Below the pieces are notes generated by a model. It ran no database searches, had not been told where the DNA came from, and saw only the letters and a list, made by a program, of their open reading frames with translations. From the sequence record NC_073069.1: 44,283 nt of DNA. One strand, given 5' to 3'. The position numbers and the translations under genes are program-made. The stretch comes from Escherichia phage B2. Positions 6,034-39,861 of the stretch are shown piece by piece. Each line of letters begins with the position of its first letter. Position 1 is the stretch's first letter.

Positions 6034-6505
6034 GCAAAAAGATAGCTGGCGCACGCCGCCAGCTTTATTTAAACCGCTGCGCCGGAAGTACCGATTCCGT
6101 TATGACATGGCGGCAAGCGACGCCAACCATCTGCTACCGCGTTACTTCACGGCAGAGCACAGCGCGCTTGAGGTGGACTGGTCAGAGTTGAAAGGGTGGA
6201 AGTGGTGCAACCCGCCGTATTCCGATCCGCTGCCGTGGGTTAAGTGCGCAGCGCACGGACGCCGGACCGTCATGCTACTGAATCAGGACACGTCGACAAA
6301 GTGGGCGCGGTTGGCCCGGAAGACTGCAAACCTGATAATTCTTCTGGACTGGCGGATCCGATTTATACATGCCGTCACCGGTGAAGTCGGGCCGAGCAAT
6401 AACAAGTGCCAGCAATTGATAATCTTTGGCGAAGCGCCACCCATCGGCAGCGCACAAATTGAAATAATGAGCGAAGGAGAACTCCTTGAATATCTTAATC
6501 GTTGA
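6020..6505 (+). CDS. phage Dam-type DNA N6-adenine methyltransferase
   Basis: WRTPPALF near N-terminus, DMAASDANH, and catalytic NPPY (WCNPPYSD); characteristic small phage Dam family. Confidence 0.8.
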   Translation: MQKSEQKDSWRTPPALFKPLRRKYRFRYDMAASDANHLLPRYFTAEHSALEVDWSELKGWKWCNPPYSDPLPWVKCAAHGRRTVMLLNQDTSTKWARLARKTANLIILLDWRIRFIHAVTGEVGPSNNKCQQLIIFGEAPPIGSAQIEIMSEGELLEYLNR

Positions 6506-6710
6506 CCGCGACCCCGCGGTCGTAGACCAAATGCAAAGAGACTACTGTATTGATCCGCGACGCAATCGGGTAGTGCGCGCGTCTCGCCCCGAATACATCC
6601 TGGGCCTTGACCTCACCGGTTGGCTTGTCATGACTCAGCGTTGCCATTTCGTGTGCAACTCCTTTACTGCGCGAAGCGCCCGTTACACCCTTATTGAGAG
6701 TTTAAAATGA
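6486..6710 (+). CDS. hypothetical protein
   Basis: 74 aa ORF from a TTG start with strong aaggaga SD 6 nt upstream; overlaps the preceding gene end. Confidence 0.3.
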   Translation: MNILIVDRDPAVVDQMQRDYCIDPRRNRVVRASRPEYILGLDLTGWLVMTQRCHFVCNSFTARSARYTLIESLK

Positions 6711-7177
6711 AATTACTGATTTGCGATTTGGATGGCGTTATTAACGGTTCAAGCGATGCGCGTGCCGACTTGGTGCCTGGCATAAAAACTAAATCCACCT
6801 TTTGGGCGAAGTGGCACAAAGCGCACGTCCGCGAAGACCTGAACATGGATATGCTGCCGCTACTGCGCATGTATAAAGAGCAAGGCTTCGAGATCGCGTA
6901 TCTGACCAACCGGCAGCGAGAATGTTGGGACACCACCGCCGAGCAATTGGAGGTCTTCCCGGTAGGCCGGTTGTTTATGCGCCACATGTTGGACGACACC
7001 CCGCCGCCTGAGTTTAAAGCGTGCGCCGTGTTCAAAATGGTATGTTACGCGGACGTGTCTGAACTGGTCATCATTGAAGATTGCGAGAAGAACATCGCGG
7101 CAATTCGTCGGGCGTGTGGTGATTTGGTCCCGAAAATTTACGCAATAAACGTTGCAAAATTCACTTGCAACCAATAG
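6707..7177 (+). CDS. HAD-superfamily hydrolase-like protein (putative phosphatase/nucleotidase)
   Basis: ATGA overlap start; HAD motif I LLICDLDGVI, YLTNR and a later acidic motif IIEDCEKN. Confidence 0.5.
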   Translation: MKLLICDLDGVINGSSDARADLVPGIKTKSTFWAKWHKAHVREDLNMDMLPLLRMYKEQGFEIAYLTNRQRECWDTTAEQLEVFPVGRLFMRHMLDDTPPPEFKACAVFKMVCYADVSELVIIEDCEKNIAAIRRACGDLVPKIYAINVAKFTCNQ

Positions 7178-7241: not shown

Positions 7242-7796
7242 GTGAAAGCATACGAATACTGCAAAAACGCCGCCACCACTATGGAACAGCGCGGGAAAGA
7301 AAACGGCTATGACAACGCGAAAGAAGAACGCAGCGCTAAACAAATCGCTGCCGTGTTTAACGCGCTTACCGGGCGCGACCTTACCGAGCAAGAAGCCTGG
7401 ACCTTCCTGATCTGCCTGAAGCTGGTGCGCCAGCACCGTAAGCACCAGGAAGATAACATCGTGGACCTGGTGGCGTATGCCGCCCTGCTGGGCGAGTCTT
7501 ACATGACCGTGCATGACGAGATTCAGATCGATACAACGGCCGCACAATTCGACAGCCTCAAAGGCCTGTCCGTGCGCCTGGACGGCGAGATTAATGCGTA
7601 TAACAGCGCAATTCGCGTTGCAGAGGACACGGTAGCCTCGTTCGGCAAGACGGTTAAGGCCCGCGATTTTGGAGTTGTAGCCCAGGACGTCCAGCCTATG
7701 GTCGTGCTCACCGGCGAAGACGGATCGAAAATCTGCATGACGCAGGAAGACTTCCGTAACATGGAAAAAACACTGGTGACGGGCGCACTTAAATAA
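7242..7796 (+). CDS. conserved phage protein of unknown function
   Basis: 184 aa, GTG start; N-terminal YDN...IAAVFNALTG...LTEQEAWTFLICLKLVRQ block looks like a conserved phage domain but I cannot name it with confidence. Confidence 0.45.
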   Translation: MKAYEYCKNAATTMEQRGKENGYDNAKEERSAKQIAAVFNALTGRDLTEQEAWTFLICLKLVRQHRKHQEDNIVDLVAYAALLGESYMTVHDEIQIDTTAAQFDSLKGLSVRLDGEINAYNSAIRVAEDTVASFGKTVKARDFGVVAQDVQPMVVLTGEDGSKICMTQEDFRNMEKTLVTGALK

Positions 7797-7838: not shown

Positions 7839-8414
7839 ATGTACGGCGAATATGAAATAACCGGTAAACAATTCCACCTGGCGGCAATGATTGCAAGCAT
7901 CGAGTTTGAACAGTGGCGATACAAGTCTGACGCGTGCAAGCAAAGCAGACTCGTCGGTGTGCTGGGCGAAATGTTTGCAGGCATGTACCTCGAAGGGCAG
8001 GCGGGCGGGCGTAGCTGTATCCCGCAAGGTTTGCTAATGCGTACCGGCCTGTTTAGCGCTAACACTATCGACCGCGGCGATATTATCATGGTTGGCAAGC
8101 GCAAGGTAAAATCCGGTCCCGACTTCCGCGAACATATGATTGATGCCGTCTGGACCTACGAGGTTAAGGCTACCAGCGGCATCCGTCGTGGGCTGGTTGA
8201 GGCACGTTGCGCTCGCGAGTATCTCACTCGTCGAGTTGCCGGTGTTATTCTGGTGGGGGTGTCGTTCGGGCAGCATAGCGCCAGCGGCGTGATTGAGGAT
8301 ATTGCGGAGCCATACGTGATAGTTAACGATTGGCCCCTGGTGGAAGTGGACGGTAAGGAATATTACGAAAGCCCGCTTGTGCGGCGCAAAATGGACTGGG
8401 AAAACTCAAACTAA
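7839..8414 (+). CDS. hypothetical protein, possible PD-(D/E)xK-like fold
   Basis: 191 aa with gaggga SD; GDIIMVG followed by TYEVK suggests a nuclease-like D...ExK arrangement, weakly supported. Confidence 0.4.
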   Translation: MYGEYEITGKQFHLAAMIASIEFEQWRYKSDACKQSRLVGVLGEMFAGMYLEGQAGGRSCIPQGLLMRTGLFSANTIDRGDIIMVGKRKVKSGPDFREHMIDAVWTYEVKATSGIRRGLVEARCAREYLTRRVAGVILVGVSFGQHSASGVIEDIAEPYVIVNDWPLVEVDGKEYYESPLVRRKMDWENSN

Positions 8415-11595: not shown

Positions 11596-14500
11596 TTACC
11601 AATAACCTGTGATTTCACCAATTTGCACGCGGAGCACGCCGTTTCCGTCCCTAACGCTGATTTGCGTGTTTGTCTGTTTCATCCCGCCACCGTTACCGGT
11701 TCCCAGGTTGATAAACGTTCCGTCTTTCCCTAAGCGCCAACCACGCGAGTAACCGTCATAGTTATTCGATTGCAGCGTGTCCGTGATCTGCGCGAAGTTG
11801 ATAGTCGCGTCTTTGATGCGTGCCGTGTCAATATACACCGCGCCGCCGTCTACGATAAACGCGGACGAAAGCGACCCGTTAGATGGGTGCATGATGTAGA
11901 ACTGGTCCGCCTTGAACGCGATGCGGGATTTAACCGCGCCACCTTCCGCAACAACTGAAAGCAGCATACCGGCATCGTAGTAAGTCCCGTTATACGTCAC
12001 GCCAGCCTTAAGGCTATATGTGGCGCTGCCACCGGAGTGGTTAAACGAAGACGTCATCTTCTGCTCGATAGCTGCGGACTGCTGACCGAACTGTGCCGCC
12101 ACCTGGGTCTTGTACTCCGCAAGTGCGCCCGCCACGTCCGCCGTTGCCATTTGCACCTGCTGGATGGCGGCCTCCTGATCGGCGAACTTAGCGGCAACAG
12201 TTTGCTGGTACTGGGCGAACGCTTGTTCCTGCGTACTCTGCGCCGTCTGCAACGTGTGGATTGCCGCTTCCGCATCGTCAAGGCGCGTGCCGATCAACGT
12301 TTCCAGTTGAGCTACCGCCTTGTGGGCGTCCGCCGCCACGTTATACGCGACCGAGATTTCTGCATAAATACCCTTGTACTCGGCGCGGGCGTTGAACAAT
12401 TGCTGCGCGTCGGTGAGCATCGCCTCGTAAATACCCTGCGGGACCGTGTCGATTGCTTCCTGGAAGCGTTTACCATCCTCGGAAGTCAAGAACTCGTCAT
12501 CAAGCCCCTTCATGTACTCGTCAACTTTGTCACTCACCTGCCCTTCAAACGGGGCCGACCAGTCCGACAGGTTGCCGATTTTATCCGCTACACGGGCGCG
12601 CAACTGCTGGTAAATTCCGAACTCAAGCGACGTTTGCGCATAATCGGACCCAGGGTATGGGACGTTGGTCAGGAATTTCCATTCCGTTTCTCCCGTCTTG
12701 CGCACTTCTAGCTCGGTGTATGAAATATCCGTCGCGGCGTTGTTGTGGTTCCACTTCCACAAGATCTGGTGAAGGCCTGAAATCGCGTTGGTGATGATAG
12801 GTGCGTTAAGCCCGCCGAGACGACCTTCCACCGGCGTGATTTCGGAAGACACCCACGGGGATGAAATCTCACCCATACCGATTGCGCGGACGCGTGCCTG
12901 GTAGTTGCCGGAGAACACGTTAGGGATGTGCGCCCCATTCGACGCCGTGCGTGGGATATTCACCCAGTCGTTACCCCACTGGATTTCCATATTCTGAAGG
13001 CTTGTACGCCGCCACTGGATTTCATACACCACGGCATCCTTCACCGGCGGGAAAACAATATCCACGTTGGTGATTAGCTGGCCTTGCGATGAGATCTGCG
13101 ACGGGGTGATGGTAACAGATTCCGGCCCCTTCATTACGCCGTCTGGCACTTGCGTGAAGATACCCGGATCTAGACGCGCGCCATTATCAACGGCGTCATA
13201 TTTGCTGTCGTTGTATTCAATCCCGCGCACCGAAAAAGTGCAGGTAGAGTCGTCATACTCCAGGTCGGTGATGCGGAATTTCTGCAACTGGATATCGTCG
13301 CCATCAACGCAAAACGGTTGGTCTGGAATCGGGTCGGCATCCAGTGCGGTTTTTAGAGTGACCTTGTTGCCGTTGACGCTGGCGATCTCGCGAGTCTCCA
13401 CATTACCGCTATCGGTGCGCACCAGGAACTTATCGCCGGGTCGGAACGTGATTTCGCTGTCCGTGTTCAGCACGGTACGCGTCCCAGGGTCCGACAACAG
13501 CCGACCGCCGCGAGTCTCGAATCCGCCAGAAATGTTTGTATCCGCGATCGCGACTACGCTACCCGGAATAAAGAATAGCCCCTCCATGCCAACCTTAAAA
13601 CTAACTTGCTGGTCAAGCTGGTTGGATATTAGCGCCCAATGCCCGCGGCGTTGCGCTTCGGATTCGCGCGTACAGCCGATCGCCGTAATATCAAGACGGT
13701 TAATCTTATGGCGGCGCACCAGTTCGACGCGCTGGCCTGTCGCGATGGCGTCATCGTAGTGGTTTTTCGGGTTGCCGTATGCTACCGCGAATGTGGAATA
13801 GCGCGTTTTCTGGCTGCCAGATGCGTAGTCGAATCGCCCATCAATAACAGATGCGTTGGTAATAGTGTGTGACACCGCGGCTACCGGTTGGTCACTGACG
13901 ATATTCAACATCTGGTTTCCCCACCAGGTCATCCCGGCGAAGATGGCAGCTAAATCCTTAAGCACGGTCCATGCGTCTGTCTGCGACTGGATGTACATAT
14001 CATTCTTAAAGCGGATTTCTCGACCACCGTTGCCGTCGCTGACCAACTGATCGCAGCGCTGCGCGATCTGGTAGAGCGCGTACCGGTTCAGCATTTGCGG
14101 TTTGATCCGGCGACCGAGGCCGAAGCGTTCAGTAATACAAATATCGTACCAGTGCCACGCAGGGTTATCCGTCCATGCGCGTTTGAACGTACCATCCCAG
14201 TCGCCCGAATAGGTATGATTAATCGGGTCGTAGTTGTTCGGGATCAACACCTTGCGACCTTTGCACTTAATGGACACGCGCGGGATGTTCTGGAACGCTT
14301 TAGCGTCGAACTCCACGAACAACAGCGCGGTTAGCGGGTAACGCAGGCGGGCGTCGATAATCTCAGTTATGGATTGCACCTGGATACCATTAACCACTTT
14401 CGCCGATGTGGAGTCTGCCGTTATGCGGTGCACCTCCACGCGCCAGCCGGTGTTAACGTTCGGCGGTAGCTCGATGCGGTGGTCGCGCTCATATAGCGAC

Positions 14501-30626: not shown

Positions 30627-32012
30627 TTAGTAGAAGTCTACAGTAGGAACAACGGCGATTGGGCGAATCACAGGGAACAGGTGCGCAACAGGATAGCCCG
30701 CTGCATCATTCATGTGGTCCACACCGGCAGTTTTATCCGGCTCGCCTTTCTTCAGGTCGTAAACCTGCTGTTCCAGACATTTCGCTAGTGTAGGGCATTT
30801 ATCCAGGTTGACAAAATACTGGCGCACGCCCTTCGAGTTGCACATCATCGTATTCATCGCGATCAATCGGTCTTTCACAGGGGGGTTAACGCTGTCGTAT
30901 TCCACCTCGAAGCCCGCATCTTCCAGTTGCGCGATATCGGACGACGACGCGTTGACCGTTTTGCGGGATTTTCCGCTGCTATCCGGGTACACGACGACCT
31001 TACCGGCAGCACAATGATCGGGGTAGCGCTCCTCGATCGCCTCAATCATAGCCGGGGTGTCAAACAGGTCCACAAATTCATCCACCGCGTGAATCTCGTC
31101 GCGGAACTCCTTGTTCTCGGTGACTCGCTGCCGTCTGACATACACAACCGCCGCCATCTTAGTGACGTTAAAGTCCATACCGATAATCAGCGTGTCGTCC
31201 GGCTGCACTTCTTCGGTGCTGGCGTTCTCCTCGCGGTTGAACATCTTGTACACCGCGCCCGACGTAAGGTTAACAAACAGGCCGTTCAGGTACGCATCAA
31301 TCAGGTTAGCCGGGTACTGACTGCGCAGCGTGTCGATAAAGTCTGCCGGTAGGTGGTGGTTGTCCGTGGTCTTCGCCCGGATCAGGCGCTTCTGGCTACC
31401 CTTCTCCACCTCGAAAATTTGATACATCGCCCGGTAGCCTTCCGGCGTGGACACGATGACAAACTGGCGGACGAAGCCCGCACGCAGACGACCGAGCAAT
31501 TTGTGGTATGCCGCCATTGCGACGTCTTGTTTCGTGGTGTCGAACTCGTCGGCAACAATCCACGCGGCGTTGACCCCGATCAGGCGGGTATAGTTCTCCA
31601 TTGATTCACAGATAACGCGGGTCCATTTGCCTTTCACCAGCACGTTATAGATCTTGTCCTGCTTATTGAACTTCCACCGGAATCCGGCCTCATCGAATGC
31701 CTTCTCCAGTTCCGGATACATGATTTTAACCAGGAGTGGAATAGTCGGTTCGGTCACGATGCCGTCATAACCGGGGTTAAGTGTCAGGAGCTGGATGACC
31801 TTACGCGCAGCTACCCACGACTTGCCGCCACCGAAGCCAGAACACAGGCCGAGGATTTTAGTCTTCGTGTCGCGCAGTAGTTCAACCTGGTGCGGCAAGC
31901 AATCAGGCTGGTAAAGGCGGACGGCCTGCGCAACGCGTGTCGGGCGTGGCGGTCGGTTACGCTTTGCGATCGCGCGTTCCAGTGCGCGGTGTTCTGCCGC
32001 ATAGTTACGCAT
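30627..32012 (-). CDS. terminase large subunit
   Basis: 461 aa; Walker A-like GLCSGFGGGKSW; ATPase then nuclease-like half; flanked by small terminase and portal. Confidence 0.85.
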   Translation of the reverse strand: MRNYAAEHRALERAIAKRNRPPRPTRVAQAVRLYQPDCLPHQVELLRDTKTKILGLCSGFGGGKSWVAARKVIQLLTLNPGYDGIVTEPTIPLLVKIMYPELEKAFDEAGFRWKFNKQDKIYNVLVKGKWTRVICESMENYTRLIGVNAAWIVADEFDTTKQDVAMAAYHKLLGRLRAGFVRQFVIVSTPEGYRAMYQIFEVEKGSQKRLIRAKTTDNHHLPADFIDTLRSQYPANLIDAYLNGLFVNLTSGAVYKMFNREENASTEEVQPDDTLIIGMDFNVTKMAAVVYVRRQRVTENKEFRDEIHAVDEFVDLFDTPAMIEAIEERYPDHCAAGKVVVYPDSSGKSRKTVNASSSDIAQLEDAGFEVEYDSVNPPVKDRLIAMNTMMCNSKGVRQYFVNLDKCPTLAKCLEQQVYDLKKGEPDKTAGVDHMNDAAGYPVAHLFPVIRPIAVVPTVDFY

Positions 32013-32627: not shown

Positions 32628-32668
32628 ATGGGGATTATAACAGGCACAAAAAAGCCCACCAAATCGGC
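32628..32668 (-). promoter_or_regulatory. sigma70-like extended -10 promoter upstream of the terminase genes
   Basis: tgttataat on the minus strand (TGn-TATAAT) about 65 nt upstream of the small terminase start. Confidence 0.4.
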
Positions 32669-32693
32669 AGGCTGGGAGTATTACTGGTTGTCG

Positions 32694-33836
32694 TTACTTC
32701 AACATTTCTGGGCTAATGGTTAAGCGCGCTACTTCGCCGTAGTTGGCGCTGTAGGTAATGACGTTGGCGCTGCGACCGGACATCCAACCGCCACGACTGG
32801 CGTAGGCGTCTTTCGCTGCTAGCGTCCGGTGCTGTTCAACAATCATGTTGCGAGACTCGACAATCTTCTGGTGGTGCAAATGACCTACGTGCGCGTAGCT
32901 GTATTCGCTCGACCCGAACGCCTGTCTGAATTTAGCGATCATAACCTGCTCGATAGCATCGAATCGCGCTTTGTGCCCGTGGTGGAAAAACAGCGTGGTC
33001 TTACCGTGCTGCACCATTTTGTAGACGTCCGGGGACGTGTCCACATCGATGCGCGGCTCGTTCTCGTACAGGGTATTGAACATCTCGGCAAGCCAAATCA
33101 TACCCGATTCGTCATGATTACCCTGGACGATTAGCAGTTTTACTTTGTGGTGTTTTTGCAGCGCCAGGTCTACCACGTTGCGCACCATGCGAATCATGTA
33201 GCGGACCAACTTCTGGTATCGGGTGTCGGCGTCAAGTACGTGACCGCTTGCCGGTGTGACGGCATCGAGGCTATCAAAGTGCGCCATATCGCCGAGGATA
33301 TTGATCACGGCAGTGCCTGCGTCTGGTGCGCGTGCGAAGGCTTCGACAAACCAGCGGTAGAACAGGTCTTCGGCGATCGCCATATCCCAGTCTTCGCCAG
33401 TCTCCTCACCCCATGCCAACATGCCCAGGTGGAAGTCTGACACGGTGTACAGGTTGAGCAAGTCGAGCGCCTGGATCGGGACTGGCGGGGCTTTTACTGG
33501 CGCTGCCGGTGTGATTTCGCTGTTCATACCCTCGACAACAGCGCGCATGGCTTCGAGTTGGCGCTCTTTGTCCTGCTCGGTGATGACCCACGACATGACC
33601 TCTTCACCATTGCCGCGCACCAGGGCCGATACGCGCTTAACCCCGAAGCCATCTGCAACTCGCTTACGGATCACGGCATCATTACCGTGACCAATCCCCT
33701 TTTTTGACAGGCGGGCTTTGCGCATGTAGACATTTCGAAGTGCAATGCCGTACTTCTTCGCAATCTCTTTAACCGTAGTTCCGGCCTGAATTTCTGCGAT
33801 CAATTGCTCATCGGTAATTTTAGTTTGCGGGTGCAT
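32694..33836 (-). CDS. calcineurin-like metallophosphoesterase with N-terminal HTH
   Basis: Metallophosphatase motifs SDFHLG, ILGDMAHFD, IVQGNHDES; N-terminal HTH-like region EQLIAEIQAGTTVKEIAKKYGI. Confidence 0.65.
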   Translation of the reverse strand: MHPQTKITDEQLIAEIQAGTTVKEIAKKYGIALRNVYMRKARLSKKGIGHGNDAVIRKRVADGFGVKRVSALVRGNGEEVMSWVITEQDKERQLEAMRAVVEGMNSEITPAAPVKAPPVPIQALDLLNLYTVSDFHLGMLAWGEETGEDWDMAIAEDLFYRWFVEAFARAPDAGTAVINILGDMAHFDSLDAVTPASGHVLDADTRYQKLVRYMIRMVRNVVDLALQKHHKVKLLIVQGNHDESGMIWLAEMFNTLYENEPRIDVDTSPDVYKMVQHGKTTLFFHHGHKARFDAIEQVMIAKFRQAFGSSEYSYAHVGHLHHQKIVESRNMIVEQHRTLAAKDAYASRGGWMSGRSANVITYSANYGEVARLTISPEMLK

Positions 33837-33857
33837 ATTTAATTAATTCCTGATTAG

Positions 33858-33885
33858 TGGACCGTGGACAATATACCACGGTCCA
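33858..33885. promoter_or_regulatory. perfect inverted repeat upstream of the phosphoesterase gene
   Basis: tggaccgtgg-acaatata-ccacggtcca, 10-bp arms, about 20 nt upstream of the ATG at 33836. Confidence 0.4.
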
Positions 33886-33998
33886 TATGGCGGCGGGCTA
33901 TATCAATTCGCAAATAACCATGCCGATAAAAGCCGCGGTGGTCCAGATCGCTAATACCCAAATATCTTTACGTGCCATCTTGATTACTCCTCTCGTCG

Positions 33999-34031
33999 AT
34001 TGGTTGCAGTATGACCCCTGTGTTGGTTGCG
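33999..34031 (+). promoter_or_regulatory. ATTGGTTGCA motif and a second TTGGTTGCG copy
   Basis: attggttgcagtatga at 33999 and ttggttgcg at 34023, both + orientation, inside the leftward late region just before the 34042-34067 hairpin. Confidence 0.35.
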
Positions 34032-34041
34032 AGTCAAGCAA

Positions 34042-34067
34042 TAAAAAGCCCGGTTAATTCCGGGCTT
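34042..34067 (-). terminator. intrinsic terminator downstream of the lysis cassette
   Basis: aagcccgg-aattaa-ccgggctt on the minus strand followed by tttttatt. Confidence 0.6.
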
Positions 34068-34073
34068 AATTGT

Positions 34074-34241
34074 TTACGCTGCGGGGCCAGATTCCTCCTG
34101 CGGTGGTGGGCTTGGCAGCTTCGCATCGAAGACCCCGGCGTGGTTGATAGAGTCCGCGATGATAGCGCGTGCGCCTGGGTCTTCGGTTTTAGCCAGTGCG
34201 GCAAGCGCGTCCGCATTATGATCAAGAATACTTTTTAACAT
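34074..34241 (-). CDS. small hypothetical protein downstream of the endolysin gene
   Basis: 55 aa ORF (MLKSILDHNADALAALAKTEDPGARAIIADS...) with gaggt SD; below the track size cutoff. Confidence 0.35.
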   Translation of the reverse strand: MLKSILDHNADALAALAKTEDPGARAIIADSINHAGVFDAKLPSPPPQEESGPAA

Positions 34242-34257
34242 ACTGTGTTACCTCGTA

Positions 34258-34749
34258 TTATGCTGCGTTACGTCCGATTTTCTCGGCAACGTCCCACTGC
34301 TTGCCATCGAATAGTGCTTGCCTGCCGATTGCGCGACGGACCAGACCTAAGAGCACCGATCCACCTTGCTTGCGGAACTGCGGCAGAATAGCACGGACCT
34401 TCGCCCAATCGCCCAGTCGCACCGCATCATCGAAATCGTTCGCGACGTCATCCGGCACGATCGGACCCGGACCGGCGTTGATTACCAGATCCACCAGCGC
34501 GTCGAATTGCGCCTGGTTAATGCTCGGATGTGCGTATTTGTTCACCCAGTCCTCGGCATACGCCACATCTCGCCTGAGCAGTTCCAGCGCTTCCGCACGG
34601 GTAATGCTTCGTGGCGGATTAGTGCCGGTGTGACCATAGCCCCAGGTGTACAGGCCGCGGGCCTGCTCTTTCTTGGTCGCGAAATACGGCACTGGGCTGA
34701 AAGTCTCCCATGCTGCCGTAAATCGTAGACCGTTGTCACTGAATCGCAT
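34258..34749 (-). CDS. endolysin (phage lysozyme-like, GH24-type)
   Basis: N-terminal catalytic region TAAWETFSPVPYF...GLYTWGYGHTG resembles phage lysozymes; adjacent to holin genes. Confidence 0.7.
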   Translation of the reverse strand: MRFSDNGLRFTAAWETFSPVPYFATKKEQARGLYTWGYGHTGTNPPRSITRAEALELLRRDVAYAEDWVNKYAHPSINQAQFDALVDLVINAGPGPIVPDDVANDFDDAVRLGDWAKVRAILPQFRKQGGSVLLGLVRRAIGRQALFDGKQWDVAEKIGRNAA

Positions 34750-35268: not shown

Positions 35269-35322
35269 AAAAAAAAGTCCCAGTAAGTTTTAGCTCACTG
35301 GGACTATATCACGCTTGCATAA

Positions 35323-37614: not shown

Positions 37615-39861
37615 TTTTAAGTCTTCATCGGTCGCTGAAAGCGTGATAGGGATATCCGATTTGATGACCAAATTAGACGACCCATAGATGGCCCCGGTGT
37701 GCGGATCGGTGTAAAAACCTATCACTCCGCGCTCCACCATATCGTCGATTGCCTTCGTCGAAGTGCCACCTTTCGCGAGTCCCGCCTGGCGGACAATTGC
37801 CGATTTACTGAATCCAGTATGGTCTGGGTTATCTTCCATCAGTTTTTCCAGGGCCGCATAAAGCACTTTCTCTTTTTCGTTGCGCGGTCCGGCGGTGTTC
37901 TCTTCCTTAACTGCGGCCTTTGCCTGTTCAATAGCGAACGGTGCCAGGGCAACCGGTACGAGGTAGAGAGTCTCGTCGCGTGGCGTGGAGGCAATCGGCT
38001 TGACGTCCCATCCGGCAACCACGTCGCCGAAGTCTGGACCGGTGCTGGTGGACTGGTGCGCCTCGAACGCTTCTGACTTGCGGAGATCCACCTTCACCTT
38101 GCACTTGAGCAGGACGAAGCCGCGCGGCGCTTGCTTGATGCCGTTACGTGACTTCTCATGATACAGGTTCAATTGTCCGGGCTGGTTGTCGTCCGGCTGT
38201 TCCAGGAAGAACGCAGAATCGACAGCACCATGCAGCGCGCCGGACCCGCGTGGGGTTCTGCTGCCGTTTGCACCTTTAGCCGGGTGGTGGATGACGCCCG
38301 CACTGCCACCTGTATTTTCCGCGATGGCCTTCAGCGCTTTGACCACTTCACCCATATCGCTGGCATTGTTCTCGTCGAACGGTTTAGCCTCGGCGGACCG
38401 CAACGCAACAGTCTGGTTGAGTGAGTCGAACGCCACCAGGCCAACCGGTTCGCCGTTAGCGGTGCGGTTGATAAAGCTGATAACTTCACGCAAACCGGAC
38501 TTGCTGGTGATATCCCAGCCGCGGGATTGCAGATCGATAATGTGCAGCTTGTCCAGGTCGTGCTCATATTTAATCTGCAATGCTTCTTTACGCTGGTTGG
38601 AGGCCTCACCACCTTCCGCATCGAAATAGAAGCAATGAGACTGGACGACCTTCGCACCGCCAAACGGGATCCCCGCGGCAACCGCGCCCATCTGCCCCAG
38701 CACGTAGAAGGACTTACCGATATTCGACTCACCCGCCATATACCAGGTCGATTTAAAGTTAATCAACCCCTCGATGATCGGGTCGTGCTTACTGAACAGC
38801 GCAACCGGCTCGTTATCTAGGTCCGCATCGGTGCACACGCCGTATTCTTCGCCGTCGCCAACCGCATCAACAATATGTTCATATAAGGACTCGACTTCCT
38901 CGTCGTCCAGACCAGGCAGGATGGCGGCGATTTGTTTACGTGACATGTTGTGCGGCTCGACGTTCAGGTAGTCTGGTATCCCGAGAAGACGTAGCGCCAG
39001 GTGCTGGTGTCTATTTAGCTCCGAGCAACACTCGTTGCCGGTGTGCATACACTTGAAACGGATCTCGCCATCCTTGACCATGATAGCCGTCGACCCTTCG
39101 CCGCTGTGCAGATGTTCGTTCGGGCACGGAACTTCATAACCGCGACCGGACGATAACGGCTCGAATCCGGCCTGAAAGCACCAATCAAGAATGCCGTCAG
39201 CCACTGCGGCGTCGCCCTGGGTAAGCTCGCGGCGTACTTCCTCTTTCTCCACCCCCAGCTTGTCCGCCAGGCGGAGCAGACGCCGCACATTGGCGCGTTT
39301 GCCGTAGTGGCACTTAATAACCGATTGCTGGTGCGGCAGGTACATCAGGCGGTTTGTGTCTTTCGTGCAATCGTCGAAGTCCACATCTGACAGACCAAGT
39401 TGGTGTAATAGCGCATACTGGACACGGCCCAGGTCTTCCGCCGGGACAGGCTTGTCCGTCAACACCAGGAAACGGGCGCAACGCGTGCCGCCTTTCAGTG
39501 GGTGACGGTCGCCGGTTGTGGTGTGGAATACGTGTTCCAGACCCGCGTCGATGAAAGCCTTACGGCAGCGGCGCAAGGTGCGAGTGTCGGTGCGGTCAAT
39601 ATCAAAGAACAGGATCGAGCGGTCCACCGCGCTGGTCTTACGGCGTAGGCCGTCACTGGTATATGCCACGATGCCATCGGCCTTGCGCTTGCGGCGCGCA
39701 TACTCGGCTTTATCCTCGGTCTTGTTGATGTGCACCGATGAGATTTCTTTCGCGTCATTGATAAATTCGAAAAATTCATCAGTTGTCATCTGGAAGTTTT
39801 CCGCCCTGGCTTTTTCGCCTTTTTTAGCGGGTCTTGTTACAGCGAATTTAATTAAGCTCAT
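37609..39861 (-). CDS. primase-polymerase/helicase-like replication protein
   Basis: 750 aa; N-terminal AEP-like ILFFDIDRTD and HTTTGDRH motifs; central Walker A GESNIGKS with RecA/DnaB-like ATPase region; C-terminal region reads as a possible wHTH. Confidence 0.7.
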   Translation of the reverse strand: MSLIKFAVTRPAKKGEKARAENFQMTTDEFFEFINDAKEISSVHINKTEDKAEYARRKRKADGIVAYTSDGLRRKTSAVDRSILFFDIDRTDTRTLRRCRKAFIDAGLEHVFHTTTGDRHPLKGGTRCARFLVLTDKPVPAEDLGRVQYALLHQLGLSDVDFDDCTKDTNRLMYLPHQQSVIKCHYGKRANVRRLLRLADKLGVEKEEVRRELTQGDAAVADGILDWCFQAGFEPLSSGRGYEVPCPNEHLHSGEGSTAIMVKDGEIRFKCMHTGNECCSELNRHQHLALRLLGIPDYLNVEPHNMSRKQIAAILPGLDDEEVESLYEHIVDAVGDGEEYGVCTDADLDNEPVALFSKHDPIIEGLINFKSTWYMAGESNIGKSFYVLGQMGAVAAGIPFGGAKVVQSHCFYFDAEGGEASNQRKEALQIKYEHDLDKLHIIDLQSRGWDITSKSGLREVISFINRTANGEPVGLVAFDSLNQTVALRSAEAKPFDENNASDMGEVVKALKAIAENTGGSAGVIHHPAKGANGSRTPRGSGALHGAVDSAFFLEQPDDNQPGQLNLYHEKSRNGIKQAPRGFVLLKCKVKVDLRKSEAFEAHQSTSTGPDFGDVVAGWDVKPIASTPRDETLYLVPVALAPFAIEQAKAAVKEENTAGPRNEKEKVLYAALEKLMEDNPDHTGFSKSAIVRQAGLAKGGTSTKAIDDMVERGVIGFYTDPHTGAIYGSSNLVIKSDIPITLSATDEDLKD

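Follow-up and report, generated by a model that had tools for sequence, protein, structure and literature searches.

Directly upstream of the terminase genes of Escherichia phage B2 (NC_073069.1) lies a gene for a phosphoesterase, preceded by a perfect palindrome and a tiny open reading frame (ORF), and the locus raises the question of what this enzyme acts on and how its gene is expressed. We analyzed the whole stretch of 44,283 bp (hereafter the window), which is that of a Dhillonvirus, a virulent siphovirus of Escherichia coli. An earlier note on this DNA had proposed an enzyme acting on nucleotide second messengers or phosphoproteins, with the palindrome as an operator. The explanation that we consider best overall is that the gene belongs to a small insulated transcription unit, that its product is a DNA-directed phosphodiesterase, and that the palindrome is a promoter (P2) within an RNA hairpin and not an operator; taken as a whole, we give this explanation about an even chance of being correct. 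The features of the gene and its product are as follows.

32694 to 33836, minus strand: gene of the helix-turn-helix (HTH) metallophosphoesterase, 380 amino acids (aa), PHROG 704 family (from the ORF and the PHROG 704 match)
33848 to 33851, minus strand: Shine-Dalgarno sequence AGGA of this gene, with an 11-nt spacer (from the sequence; conserved among Dhillonvirus copies)
33702 to 33812, minus strand: N-terminal three-helix HTH, aa 9–45
33519 to 33647, minus strand: beta-hairpin (aa 64–88) and long helix (aa 90–106), the linker between HTH and catalytic domain (from the secondary structure of the AlphaFold2 model)
32697 to 33470, minus strand: metallophosphoesterase catalytic domain, aa 123–380, with motifs I–V

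All five catalytic motifs were intact, namely D134-x-H136, G182-D183, G239-N240-H241-D242, H285/H286/H288 and G318-H319-x-H321, with the letters HHGH at residues 285–288 and GHLHH at 318–322. The DxH, GD and GNHD motifs by which the earlier note had recognized a calcineurin-like phosphoesterase are part of this complete set. In a 58-sequence alignment (A1, 33–81% identity) D134/H136, G182/D183, N240/H241, H286 and G318/H321 were invariant, and two family-specific motifs became obvious, VTPxSGHxLDAD after motif II and EQHxTLAAxDAYA near the C-terminus. Residue W83 in the beta-hairpin/helix linker was near-invariant in the family, and invariant in alignments A2 and A3. The Pfam models Metallophos_2 and Metallophos stayed below their gathering thresholds (E-values of 8e-5 and 1e-3; 23.1 vs. 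27 and 19.9 vs. 21.5 bits, respectively). Membership in the calcineurin-like superfamily holds through the motifs and the fold, and the family is divergent. Over its full length the protein matched PHROG 704, named “DNA repair exonuclease” (E = 2.7e-161, residues 5–380 against profile positions 2–390), with a cross-match to PHROG 284, “exonuclease” (E = 1.3e-13). Compared with PHROG 704 homologues the gene of the window showed no substantive difference and belongs to this family; the PHROG 704 name, however, is an annotation rather than a tested function.

The AlphaFold2 model calculated from the 58-sequence alignment (predicted local distance difference test score 92.5; predicted TM-score 0.80) showed a beta-sandwich phosphoesterase fold. 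It was nearest to the nuclease branch, i.e., to PolD DP1, SbcD and Mre11; sequence identity to these proteins and to T4 gp47 is just 14–16%. The protein would be a binuclear metallophosphoesterase of the Mre11/SbcD/PolD-DP1 structural class and, by its motifs, is predicted to be catalytically intact. The N-terminal HTH-like segment described earlier was confirmed as a three-helix HTH fold of the LuxR/GerE or resolvase type (aa 9–45), although the GerE profile of Pfam scored below its cutoff (15.2 vs. 23.5 bits). Searching the Protein Data Bank with the single protein sequence returned only spurious matches to designed armadillo repeats, and a profile search returned weak matches to GerE and SbcD and nothing else. 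NCBIfam and PADLOC searches with the phosphoesterase gave nothing useful, and no PADLOC model matched. The relatives in BFVD were all uncharacterized viral proteins, some of them labeled “DNA polymerase II small subunit.”

Relatives of the PHROG 704 family were found in 2058 of 50,697 phage records, and the family comprised 4671 clusters at 50% identity (E up to 1e-3). They occur in Dhillonvirus, Kagunavirus, Jerseyvirus, Drexlerviridae (many of them Klebsiella Webervirus), Jedunavirus, Vibrio phages and others, as well as in proteobacterial genomes, there apparently in prophage regions adjoining terminase, portal and lysis-type ORFs. Identity to the protein of the window was 96–100% in Dhillonvirus, 73–82% in Guernseyvirinae and 41–55% in Drexlerviridae and Jedunavirus, and GenBank names the homologues either “calcineurin-like phosphoesterase” or “winged helix-turn-helix domain-containing protein.” The architecture of HTH plus metallophosphoesterase is common to Dhillonvirus, Guernseyvirinae (Kagunavirus, Jerseyvirus), Drexlerviridae (Webervirus) and Jedunavirus. 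In three proteobacterial loci (L146, L149, and L152), a Cys-rich, Zn-ribbon-like N-terminus (CxxC...CxxC, beginning MICPKCG) replaces the HTH, and the homologue of Campylobacter phage F348, with 30% identity over the catalytic domain, contains neither an HTH nor a Cys-rich segment. Judged from these sequences, the N-terminal nucleic-acid-binding module of the family is interchangeable and would therefore serve as a generic means of targeting to nucleic acid.

The gene is under strong purifying selection. Relative L003 differed from the window gene at 59 nucleotides and 1 aa, L015 at 156 nucleotides and 15 aa, and the divergence was almost wholly synonymous. Nevertheless, one natural Dhillonvirus, KarlBarth (BASEL Bas17), does not contain the gene; two small ORFs stand in its place, bounded on one side by the tiny ORF and on the other by the same terminator as in the window. 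With a coverage of 28% KarlBarth ranked lowest among 155 Dhillonvirus records, and it was the sole sampled record without the gene. It also lacks the HAD phosphatase gene found elsewhere in the window and two genes neighboring it. The phosphoesterase gene is therefore accessory, as KarlBarth has no copy, yet strongly maintained, as its divergence is near-only synonymous. That the protein is made was seen in a congener: mass spectrometry of a cell-free lysate of Dhillonvirus EE09 identified 3 peptides of the 380-aa orthologue (11% coverage; PMC10673088). Published work on Dhillonvirus anti-Tmn (PMC11846954) and on Metis (10.1101/2025.11.05.686725) is unrelated to the phosphoesterase gene.

The activity of the enzyme is most likely that of a DNA-directed phosphodiesterase, either an exo- or endonuclease or a 3′-end-cleaning enzyme, because the modeled fold is nearest to nucleases and because the neighbors in the family are a PNKP-type HAD phosphatase and a protein resembling deoxynucleoside monophosphate (dNMP) kinases. 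The resolvase/LuxR-type HTH, joined by the beta-hairpin and the long helix to the catalytic domain, would hold the enzyme on DNA rather than control transcription. Its partners would be the PNKP-type HAD 3′-phosphatase and, in some phages, the dNMP-kinase-like P-loop protein, and the pathway may be DNA-end processing, or host DNA breakdown combined with nucleotide salvage.

The genomic neighbors were compared across the family. Adjacency to the terminase genes (TerS and TerL), which the earlier note had pointed out, is true in the window but is not conserved across the PHROG 704 family. Kagunavirus and Jerseyvirus carry the gene within the tail module, on a small island of opposite strand, Drexlerviridae have it ahead of the lysis cassette, and in prophage-like loci it is found near predicted terminase or lysis genes, which we read as an early/late junction. 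In Kagunavirus (L016 and K1ind2) and in Webervirus KOX1 the gene is followed by a PHROG 415 HAD phosphatase and then by a PHROG 139 P-loop protein. The former is of the PNKP type (Pfam HAD_PNKP, 8.5e-21), the latter is annotated “dNMP kinase,” and in L016 stop/start overlaps of 4 and 1 nt link the phosphoesterase, HAD and kinase-like genes. In Jedunavirus MEW1 the HAD gene alone follows the phosphoesterase gene. The 704-415(-139) association thus occurs in three genera, each with a different genomic context; among loci with 70–85% identity and enough flank, the cassette was present in 17 and absent in 29. In the Campylobacter phage the homologue sits after a Holliday-junction resolvase and a DNA ligase. 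HAD phosphatase, dNMP kinase, resolvase and ligase as neighbors therefore suggest chemistry on nucleic-acid ends and dNMPs. In the window itself the PHROG 415 HAD gene sits away from the phosphoesterase gene, at 6707–7177. A phmmer search for the HAD, p184 and p191 proteins of the window near the phosphoesterase gene in other loci found none, and the association appeared only at the family level (PHROG 415).

Given this fold and these neighbors, a second-messenger or phosphoprotein substrate is not favored. A counter-defence phosphodiesterase, which would destroy the messengers of CBASS, Pycsar, type III CRISPR or Thoeris or deplete another nucleotide, would suit an accessory gene that forms a moron-like unit with a promoter and a terminator of its own, is located at an indel hot-spot and is lost in one natural phage. 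We nevertheless regard it as quite unlikely, as the nearest fold matches are nucleases, a fused DNA-binding HTH has no obvious use in a small-molecule hydrolase, the neighbors are enzymes of nucleic-acid ends and dNMPs, a DNA ligase and a resolvase, and PADLOC gave no matching model. To our knowledge, the known anti-signaling enzymes Acb1, Apyc1, and AcrIII-1 also have other folds. Any role in counter-defence is more likely to run through nucleic-acid processing.

Highly improbable, in our judgment, is a protein Ser/Thr/Tyr phosphatase that, like lambda NinI, would reprogram phosphoproteins of the host or the phage. Both proteins belong to the same superfamily, and in lambdoid-type prophage loci the gene is placed at the nin/late-region junction, a position that we take to correspond to that of lambda ninI. 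However, of the signatures GDxHG, GDxVDRG and GNHE of the PPP Ser/Thr phosphatases (lambda NinI type) the first two are missing, the sequence reading DFHLG and GDMAHFD, and neither the HTH fusion nor the nucleic-acid neighbors fit such a function; a PPP phosphatase was therefore rejected.

The neighbors also bear on the pathway in which a DNA-directed enzyme would act. One proposal is an end-healing phosphoesterase of a split repair pathway, similar to the metallophosphoesterase domain of bacterial Pnkp, which would remove 2′,3′-cyclic or 3′-phosphates from broken DNA or RNA and, together with HAD phosphatase, P-loop kinase and ligase, would mend damage caused by host defence nucleases. T4 Pnkp and ligase form an established counter-defence repair system of this kind, and the translational coupling to the PNKP-type HAD and P-loop kinase-like genes in Kagunavirus L016, the adjacency to both in Webervirus, the DNA ligase adjoining the gene in Campylobacter phages and the joint absence of phosphoesterase and HAD genes from KarlBarth would all agree with it. 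Since the annotation of the window contains no ligase, PHROG 139 bears the name of a dNMP kinase and not of a polynucleotide kinase, and many lineages do not show the association, we consider this proposal rather unlikely. Somewhat more probable, although held tentatively, is that the HTH-tethered phosphoesterase constitutes the nuclease or end-cleaning arm of a widespread, unstudied three-part module with the PNKP-type HAD 3′-phosphatase and the P-loop kinase. Such a module would mend phage nucleic acids after cleavage by defence nucleases of the host, or would turn host DNA into dNTP (deoxynucleoside triphosphate) precursors.

Several observations weigh against a DNA-directed enzyme acting with these partners. 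Jerseyvirus and most prophage contexts have neither the HAD nor the kinase neighbor, and the joint loss of phosphoesterase and HAD genes in KarlBarth is a single case. No Rad50/SbcC-like partner was present among the annotated genes of the window or among 10 unassigned proteins scanned against PHROGs. In the literature we found no functional study of the PHROG 704 family and no biochemical data for any member.

Known systems resemble the window protein in part. Mre11, SbcD and T4 gp47 work with an ATPase (Rad50, SbcC or gp46), which, as stated, has no counterpart in the proteins covered here, and the N-terminal module of HTH and beta-hairpin is unique to the PHROG 704 family when compared with Mre11, SbcD and DP1. 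The protein also differs from PolD DP1, as its N-terminus is HTH plus beta-hairpin and not an oligonucleotide/oligosaccharide-binding fold, no DP2 partner is present in the annotation of the window or among the 10 unassigned proteins scanned, and the polymerase of the phage is a family-A Pol I. Homology to T5 A1 was rejected, since hhalign gave a probability of 19% over 19 columns and only the GNHD motif is shared. T5 A1 is still a phage metallophosphoesterase that acts alongside a dNMP phosphatase and thereby a functional analogue of the phosphoesterase/HAD/dNMP-kinase cassette, but it differs in being a pre-early protein of 556 aa. Gp48, a Cluster A metallophosphoesterase of mycobacteriophage A10ZJ24, has phosphodiesterase activity, inflicts damage on host DNA and aids infection; Mycobacterium smegmatis can be infected without it, but the killing of M. 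tuberculosis requires it (PMC12287305). In Gp48 the first catalytic Asp is residue 10 (D10G mutant), and unlike the window protein it therefore has no N-terminal HTH.

Members of this very common family occur in about 4% of sequenced phages, and purifying selection on the gene is strong, although one natural phage is without it; many therapeutic-candidate coliphages as well as Klebsiella and Salmonella phages carry the gene. To settle whether the enzyme serves host-DNA degradation, phage-DNA repair or the countering of defence would fill a recurrent gap in phage annotation, and the three-part module, if true, would give a function to a family of this size. The phosphoesterase gene itself was already annotated, the palindrome has a more ordinary reading than that of an operator, and nothing at the locus is surprising to a specialist.

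How the gene is expressed depends on the reading of the palindrome, in which two features overlap.

33858 to 33867 and 33876 to 33885: perfect 10-8-10 inverted repeat TGGACCGTGG-N8-CCACGGTCCA, unique in the window
33870 to 33878, minus strand: P2, predicted extended −10 promoter TGGTATATT, which takes up most of the loop and the adjoining 3 nt of the left arm

The perfect inverted repeat of the earlier note was confirmed; it is the sole one in the window with arms of at least 10 bp and a loop of 3–12 nt. Its perfection is not beyond chance, since first-order Markov random genomes of the same size contained 0.57 such repeats on average and 37% of them had at least one, and the argument must therefore rest on position and conservation. 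Recurrence of the palindrome arms and of the −10 motif elsewhere in the window, as expected for sites of a global regulator, was not above chance either. To assess conservation, 27 Dhillonvirus upstream regions (19 distinct sequences) were aligned. The copy in MK728541.1 (CEC_Kaz_2018, L002) was left out of all conservation analyses, as it is about 9% different from the window and contains Ns. In length and gene coordinates MK728541.1 agrees with the window, but the copy shows only about 90% identity, no indels and scattered Ns, and its palindrome is imperfect (CCTCGG instead of CCACGG).

In all 27 copies the block C-x2-TGnTATATTG, i.e., the loop together with the three innermost bases of the left arm, was invariant. 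It corresponds to P2, which lies 42 nt upstream of the phosphoesterase ATG and by its sequence has both the TGn element and a −10 hexamer with at least 5 of 6 matches; transcription would start near 33863, within the right arm. In L009–L011 the upstream terminator abuts P2 and leaves it as the only promoter candidate, and the TerS operon of the window begins with a promoter of the same type (TGTTATAAT). The arms behaved differently from this block. They formed 4–10 Watson–Crick pairs across the 27 copies and were perfect in only three (window, L003, and L076); pairing reached 74% vs. 70.9% in column shuffles, so that covariation was weak, and opposite the T of the “TG” motif A, G, C, and T all occurred freely in the right arm. 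In the copies examined (L003–L015) the HTH recognition helix was identical in phages with intact and with decayed arms.

Arm pairing instead followed the presence of P1, a second predicted promoter that lies upstream of the tiny ORF (the P1 class of L006, L015, and L083 was assigned by eye from the sequences). Phages retaining P1 had 7–10 arm pairs and hairpins of −7.2 to −19.5 kcal/mol, whereas those without P1 (three deletion junctions: L009-type, L011, and L082) had 4–6 pairs and −0.9 to −5.4 kcal/mol. L015 and L083, which keep P1, contain three G·U arm pairs, useful only in RNA. In the window the hairpin has −19.5 kcal/mol (z about −2) and starts 12 nt after the stop codon of the tiny ORF. 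As the arms stay paired only where P1 is kept, and as the recognition helix is unchanged where P1 is lost, these sequence comparisons point to P2 inside an RNA hairpin of the P1 transcript as a better reading of the palindrome than an operator. The arms would pair only in RNA begun at P1, and the hairpin may mark or stabilize the 3′ end of the tiny-ORF transcript or dampen read-through, while transcripts from P2 would begin inside the right arm and hence be free of the hairpin. Processing by RNase III was considered and rejected, because a stem of 10 bp is too short for a substrate of this enzyme.

The operator proposed earlier would be bound by the protein's own HTH, a dimer on the arms flanking the −10 element autoregulating the promoter or blocking read-through from upstream. 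The layout is classic for autoregulation, with the repeat overlapping a promoter directly upstream of an HTH gene, arms unique in the genome, and core half-sites GGACCG/CGGTCC about two helical turns apart. Moreover, in other genera a short inverted repeat, with a spacer of 4 nt and 30–36 nt before the ATG, follows or overlaps an extended −10; its half-sites are lineage-specific but complementary (TAGGA/TCCTA, ATCGGA/TCCGAT, TCAGA/TCTGA, and TAAATAAGA/TCTTATTTA), and the recognition helix differs alongside. However, in Dhillonvirus the number of arm pairs ranges from 4 to 10 despite the identical recognition helix in the decayed-arm copies L009–L011, covariation is weak, arm decay tracks the loss of P1 in three independent deletions and not a change in the protein, and the G·U pairs of L015 and L083 save the stem in RNA only. 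The 10-8-10 geometry is also unlike the 5-4-5 repeats of the other genera, some homologues have a Zn-ribbon-like N-terminus or no HTH at all, and in the Kagunavirus K1ind2 the repeat TAGGA-N4-TCCTA is also found upstream of the holin gene, suggesting a shared promoter-associated element over strict autoregulation. We therefore regard an operator as unlikely; of the earlier claim the repeat is confirmed and its operator role is not supported.

Three points count against the hairpin reading. The repeat pattern of the other genera would also fit an autoregulatory operator, or a structured transcription-start element. The hairpin is followed by CUAAUCAGG, i.e., it has no U-tract, and was not reported by the terminator scan, so that it is no classical terminator. 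Finally, the evidence tying the hairpin to P1 consists of three deletions, all in closely related genomes.

In the 42.8-kb genome of K1ind2 (L172) the perfect TAGGA-N4-TCCTA occurs exactly twice, at 13565–13578 and 38626–38639, both intergenic; about 0.55 matches with at most one mismatch are expected by chance. One copy lies upstream of the phosphoesterase/HAD/kinase operon, the other upstream of the holin gene.

Upstream of the palindrome the following features were found.

33898 to 33978, minus strand: tiny ORF of 26 aa (MARKDIWVLAIWTTAAFIGMVICELI), ATG at 33978, stop codon at 33898–33900
33987 to 33991, minus strand: Shine-Dalgarno sequence AGGAG of the tiny ORF, 8 nt upstream of the ATG
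34008 to 34037, minus strand: P1, predicted sigma-70-like promoter TTGACT-18-CATACT (from a consensus scan)

The tiny hydrophobic ORF with a strong Shine-Dalgarno sequence, as noticed earlier, was borne out in the relatives. Its product consists of MARKD, an 18-residue hydrophobic stretch and ELI. Of about 155 Dhillonvirus records, about 109 contain the ORF complete and intact, with 73–100% aa identity, and it is mostly unannotated. The reading frame and a purine-rich Shine-Dalgarno sequence (mostly GAGGAG; GAAGGAG or GATGGAG in three) are preserved in 14 different nucleotide versions, whose variable sites are distributed over codon positions 1/2/3 as 8/3/10. Codons for Leu, Ala, Arg, and Phe vary synonymously, and aa replacements are conservative. 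Where extra small genes are inserted, the 3′ end of the ORF is remodeled to overlap the next start codon. Phages with a deletion of P1 have no such ORF, and L012 has a truncated one; P1 is conserved in the relatives bearing the ORF and also in L015 and L083, where the ORF alone is deleted. From these patterns the tiny ORF is probably a real accessory gene for a single-pass membrane micro-protein, and P1 would serve it and read through to the phosphoesterase gene. As spanins are annotated elsewhere in KarlBarth, there is no need for the micro-protein to act as one. Together with its 3′ hairpin, the tiny membrane peptide suggests a separate small gene in most Dhillonviruses.

The plus-strand ORF annotated at 33857–34057 (QCO71641.1, 66 aa, “hypothetical protein”) was rejected as a gene candidate. 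It is antisense to the tiny ORF and spans a terminator and P1, and in relatives it is truncated or non-conservatively changed, so that it is probably not a gene. For annotation, the practical results are the palindrome re-read as a promoter in an RNA hairpin, a probable new 26-aa gene and a likely spurious ORF on the opposite strand.

The surroundings of the locus contain the following features.

34046 to 34067, minus strand: intrinsic terminator with an 8-bp stem and T-run, ending the lysis-cassette transcript (from a terminator scan; annotated so in phage CS16)
32653 to 32673, minus strand: intrinsic terminator 3′ of the phosphoesterase gene (from a terminator scan; annotated in CS16)
32634 to 32642, minus strand: promoter of the TerS/TerL/structural operon, a perfect extended −10 (TGTTATAAT) located 10 nt past the terminator T-run
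32012 to 32563/84: TerS, the downstream neighbor of the phosphoesterase gene
30627 to 32012: TerL, after TerS

On the minus strand, two holins are followed by the endolysin (34258–34749), a 55-aa ORF (34074–34241), the studied locus, TerS, TerL, and the portal gene. Read in this order, the locus would be transcribed as a small insulated unit that comes after the lysis cassette and before the packaging genes. The terminator at 34046–34067 would stop the lysis transcript, the sigma-70-type P1 would drive the 26-aa membrane micro-protein, the extended −10 promoter P2 would drive the 380-aa phosphoesterase gene, and the terminator at 32653–32673 would shut the unit before the TerS promoter. The latter terminator is kept in KarlBarth although the phosphoesterase gene is replaced there.

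An extended −10-like sequence, TGATATAGT, was also observed at 35276–35311 (minus strand), overlapping the left arm of a strong terminator hairpin (35276–35305) directly before the holin start. The holin and TerS junctions of this phage thus have an extended −10 beside or overlapping an upstream hairpin; the hairpin of the phosphoesterase gene differs from them, as it has no U-tract and holds the promoter inside its loop. Because the holin start repeats the layout of a promoter in or next to a hairpin that is seen at the phosphoesterase gene, the arrangement suggests that Dhillonvirus operons are insulated by terminator-promoter junctions.

The region between endolysin and phosphoesterase gene (33898–34258) was an indel hot-spot in the relatives (loci L003–L015 and L075). 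Insertions there include a 57-aa ORF in L005 and L007 and an ORF of about 75 aa in L006 and L014, and a longer ORF occupies the position of the 55-aa ORF in several relatives (e.g., L003, L004, and L015). The record of SSL-2009a annotates a “structural protein with Ig domain” in the region of the 55-aa ORF. The block of P1 and tiny ORF was deleted at least three separate times among the relatives. In KarlBarth the two ORFs mentioned above stand in place of the phosphoesterase gene itself.

Further observations were made around the distant HAD gene. A 191-aa protein (7839–8414, plus strand; PHROG 10558) has a D...E-x-K pattern (GDIIMV...YEVKAT) resembling PD-(D/E)xK nucleases, and this protein, the HAD phosphatase (6707–7177) and a DUF6378 protein (7242–7796) are all missing from KarlBarth. 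Ksap1 is a Dhillonvirus protein that directly activates the Klebsiella defence protein Avs2, and Ksap1 of Bas17 (KarlBarth) was tested in that study (PMC11564622). A 74-aa ORF of the window (6486–6710, plus strand), located between a Dam-like methyltransferase and the HAD phosphatase, fits the description of Ksap1; it is 59% identical to KarlBarth gp32, at the syntenic position in Bas17.

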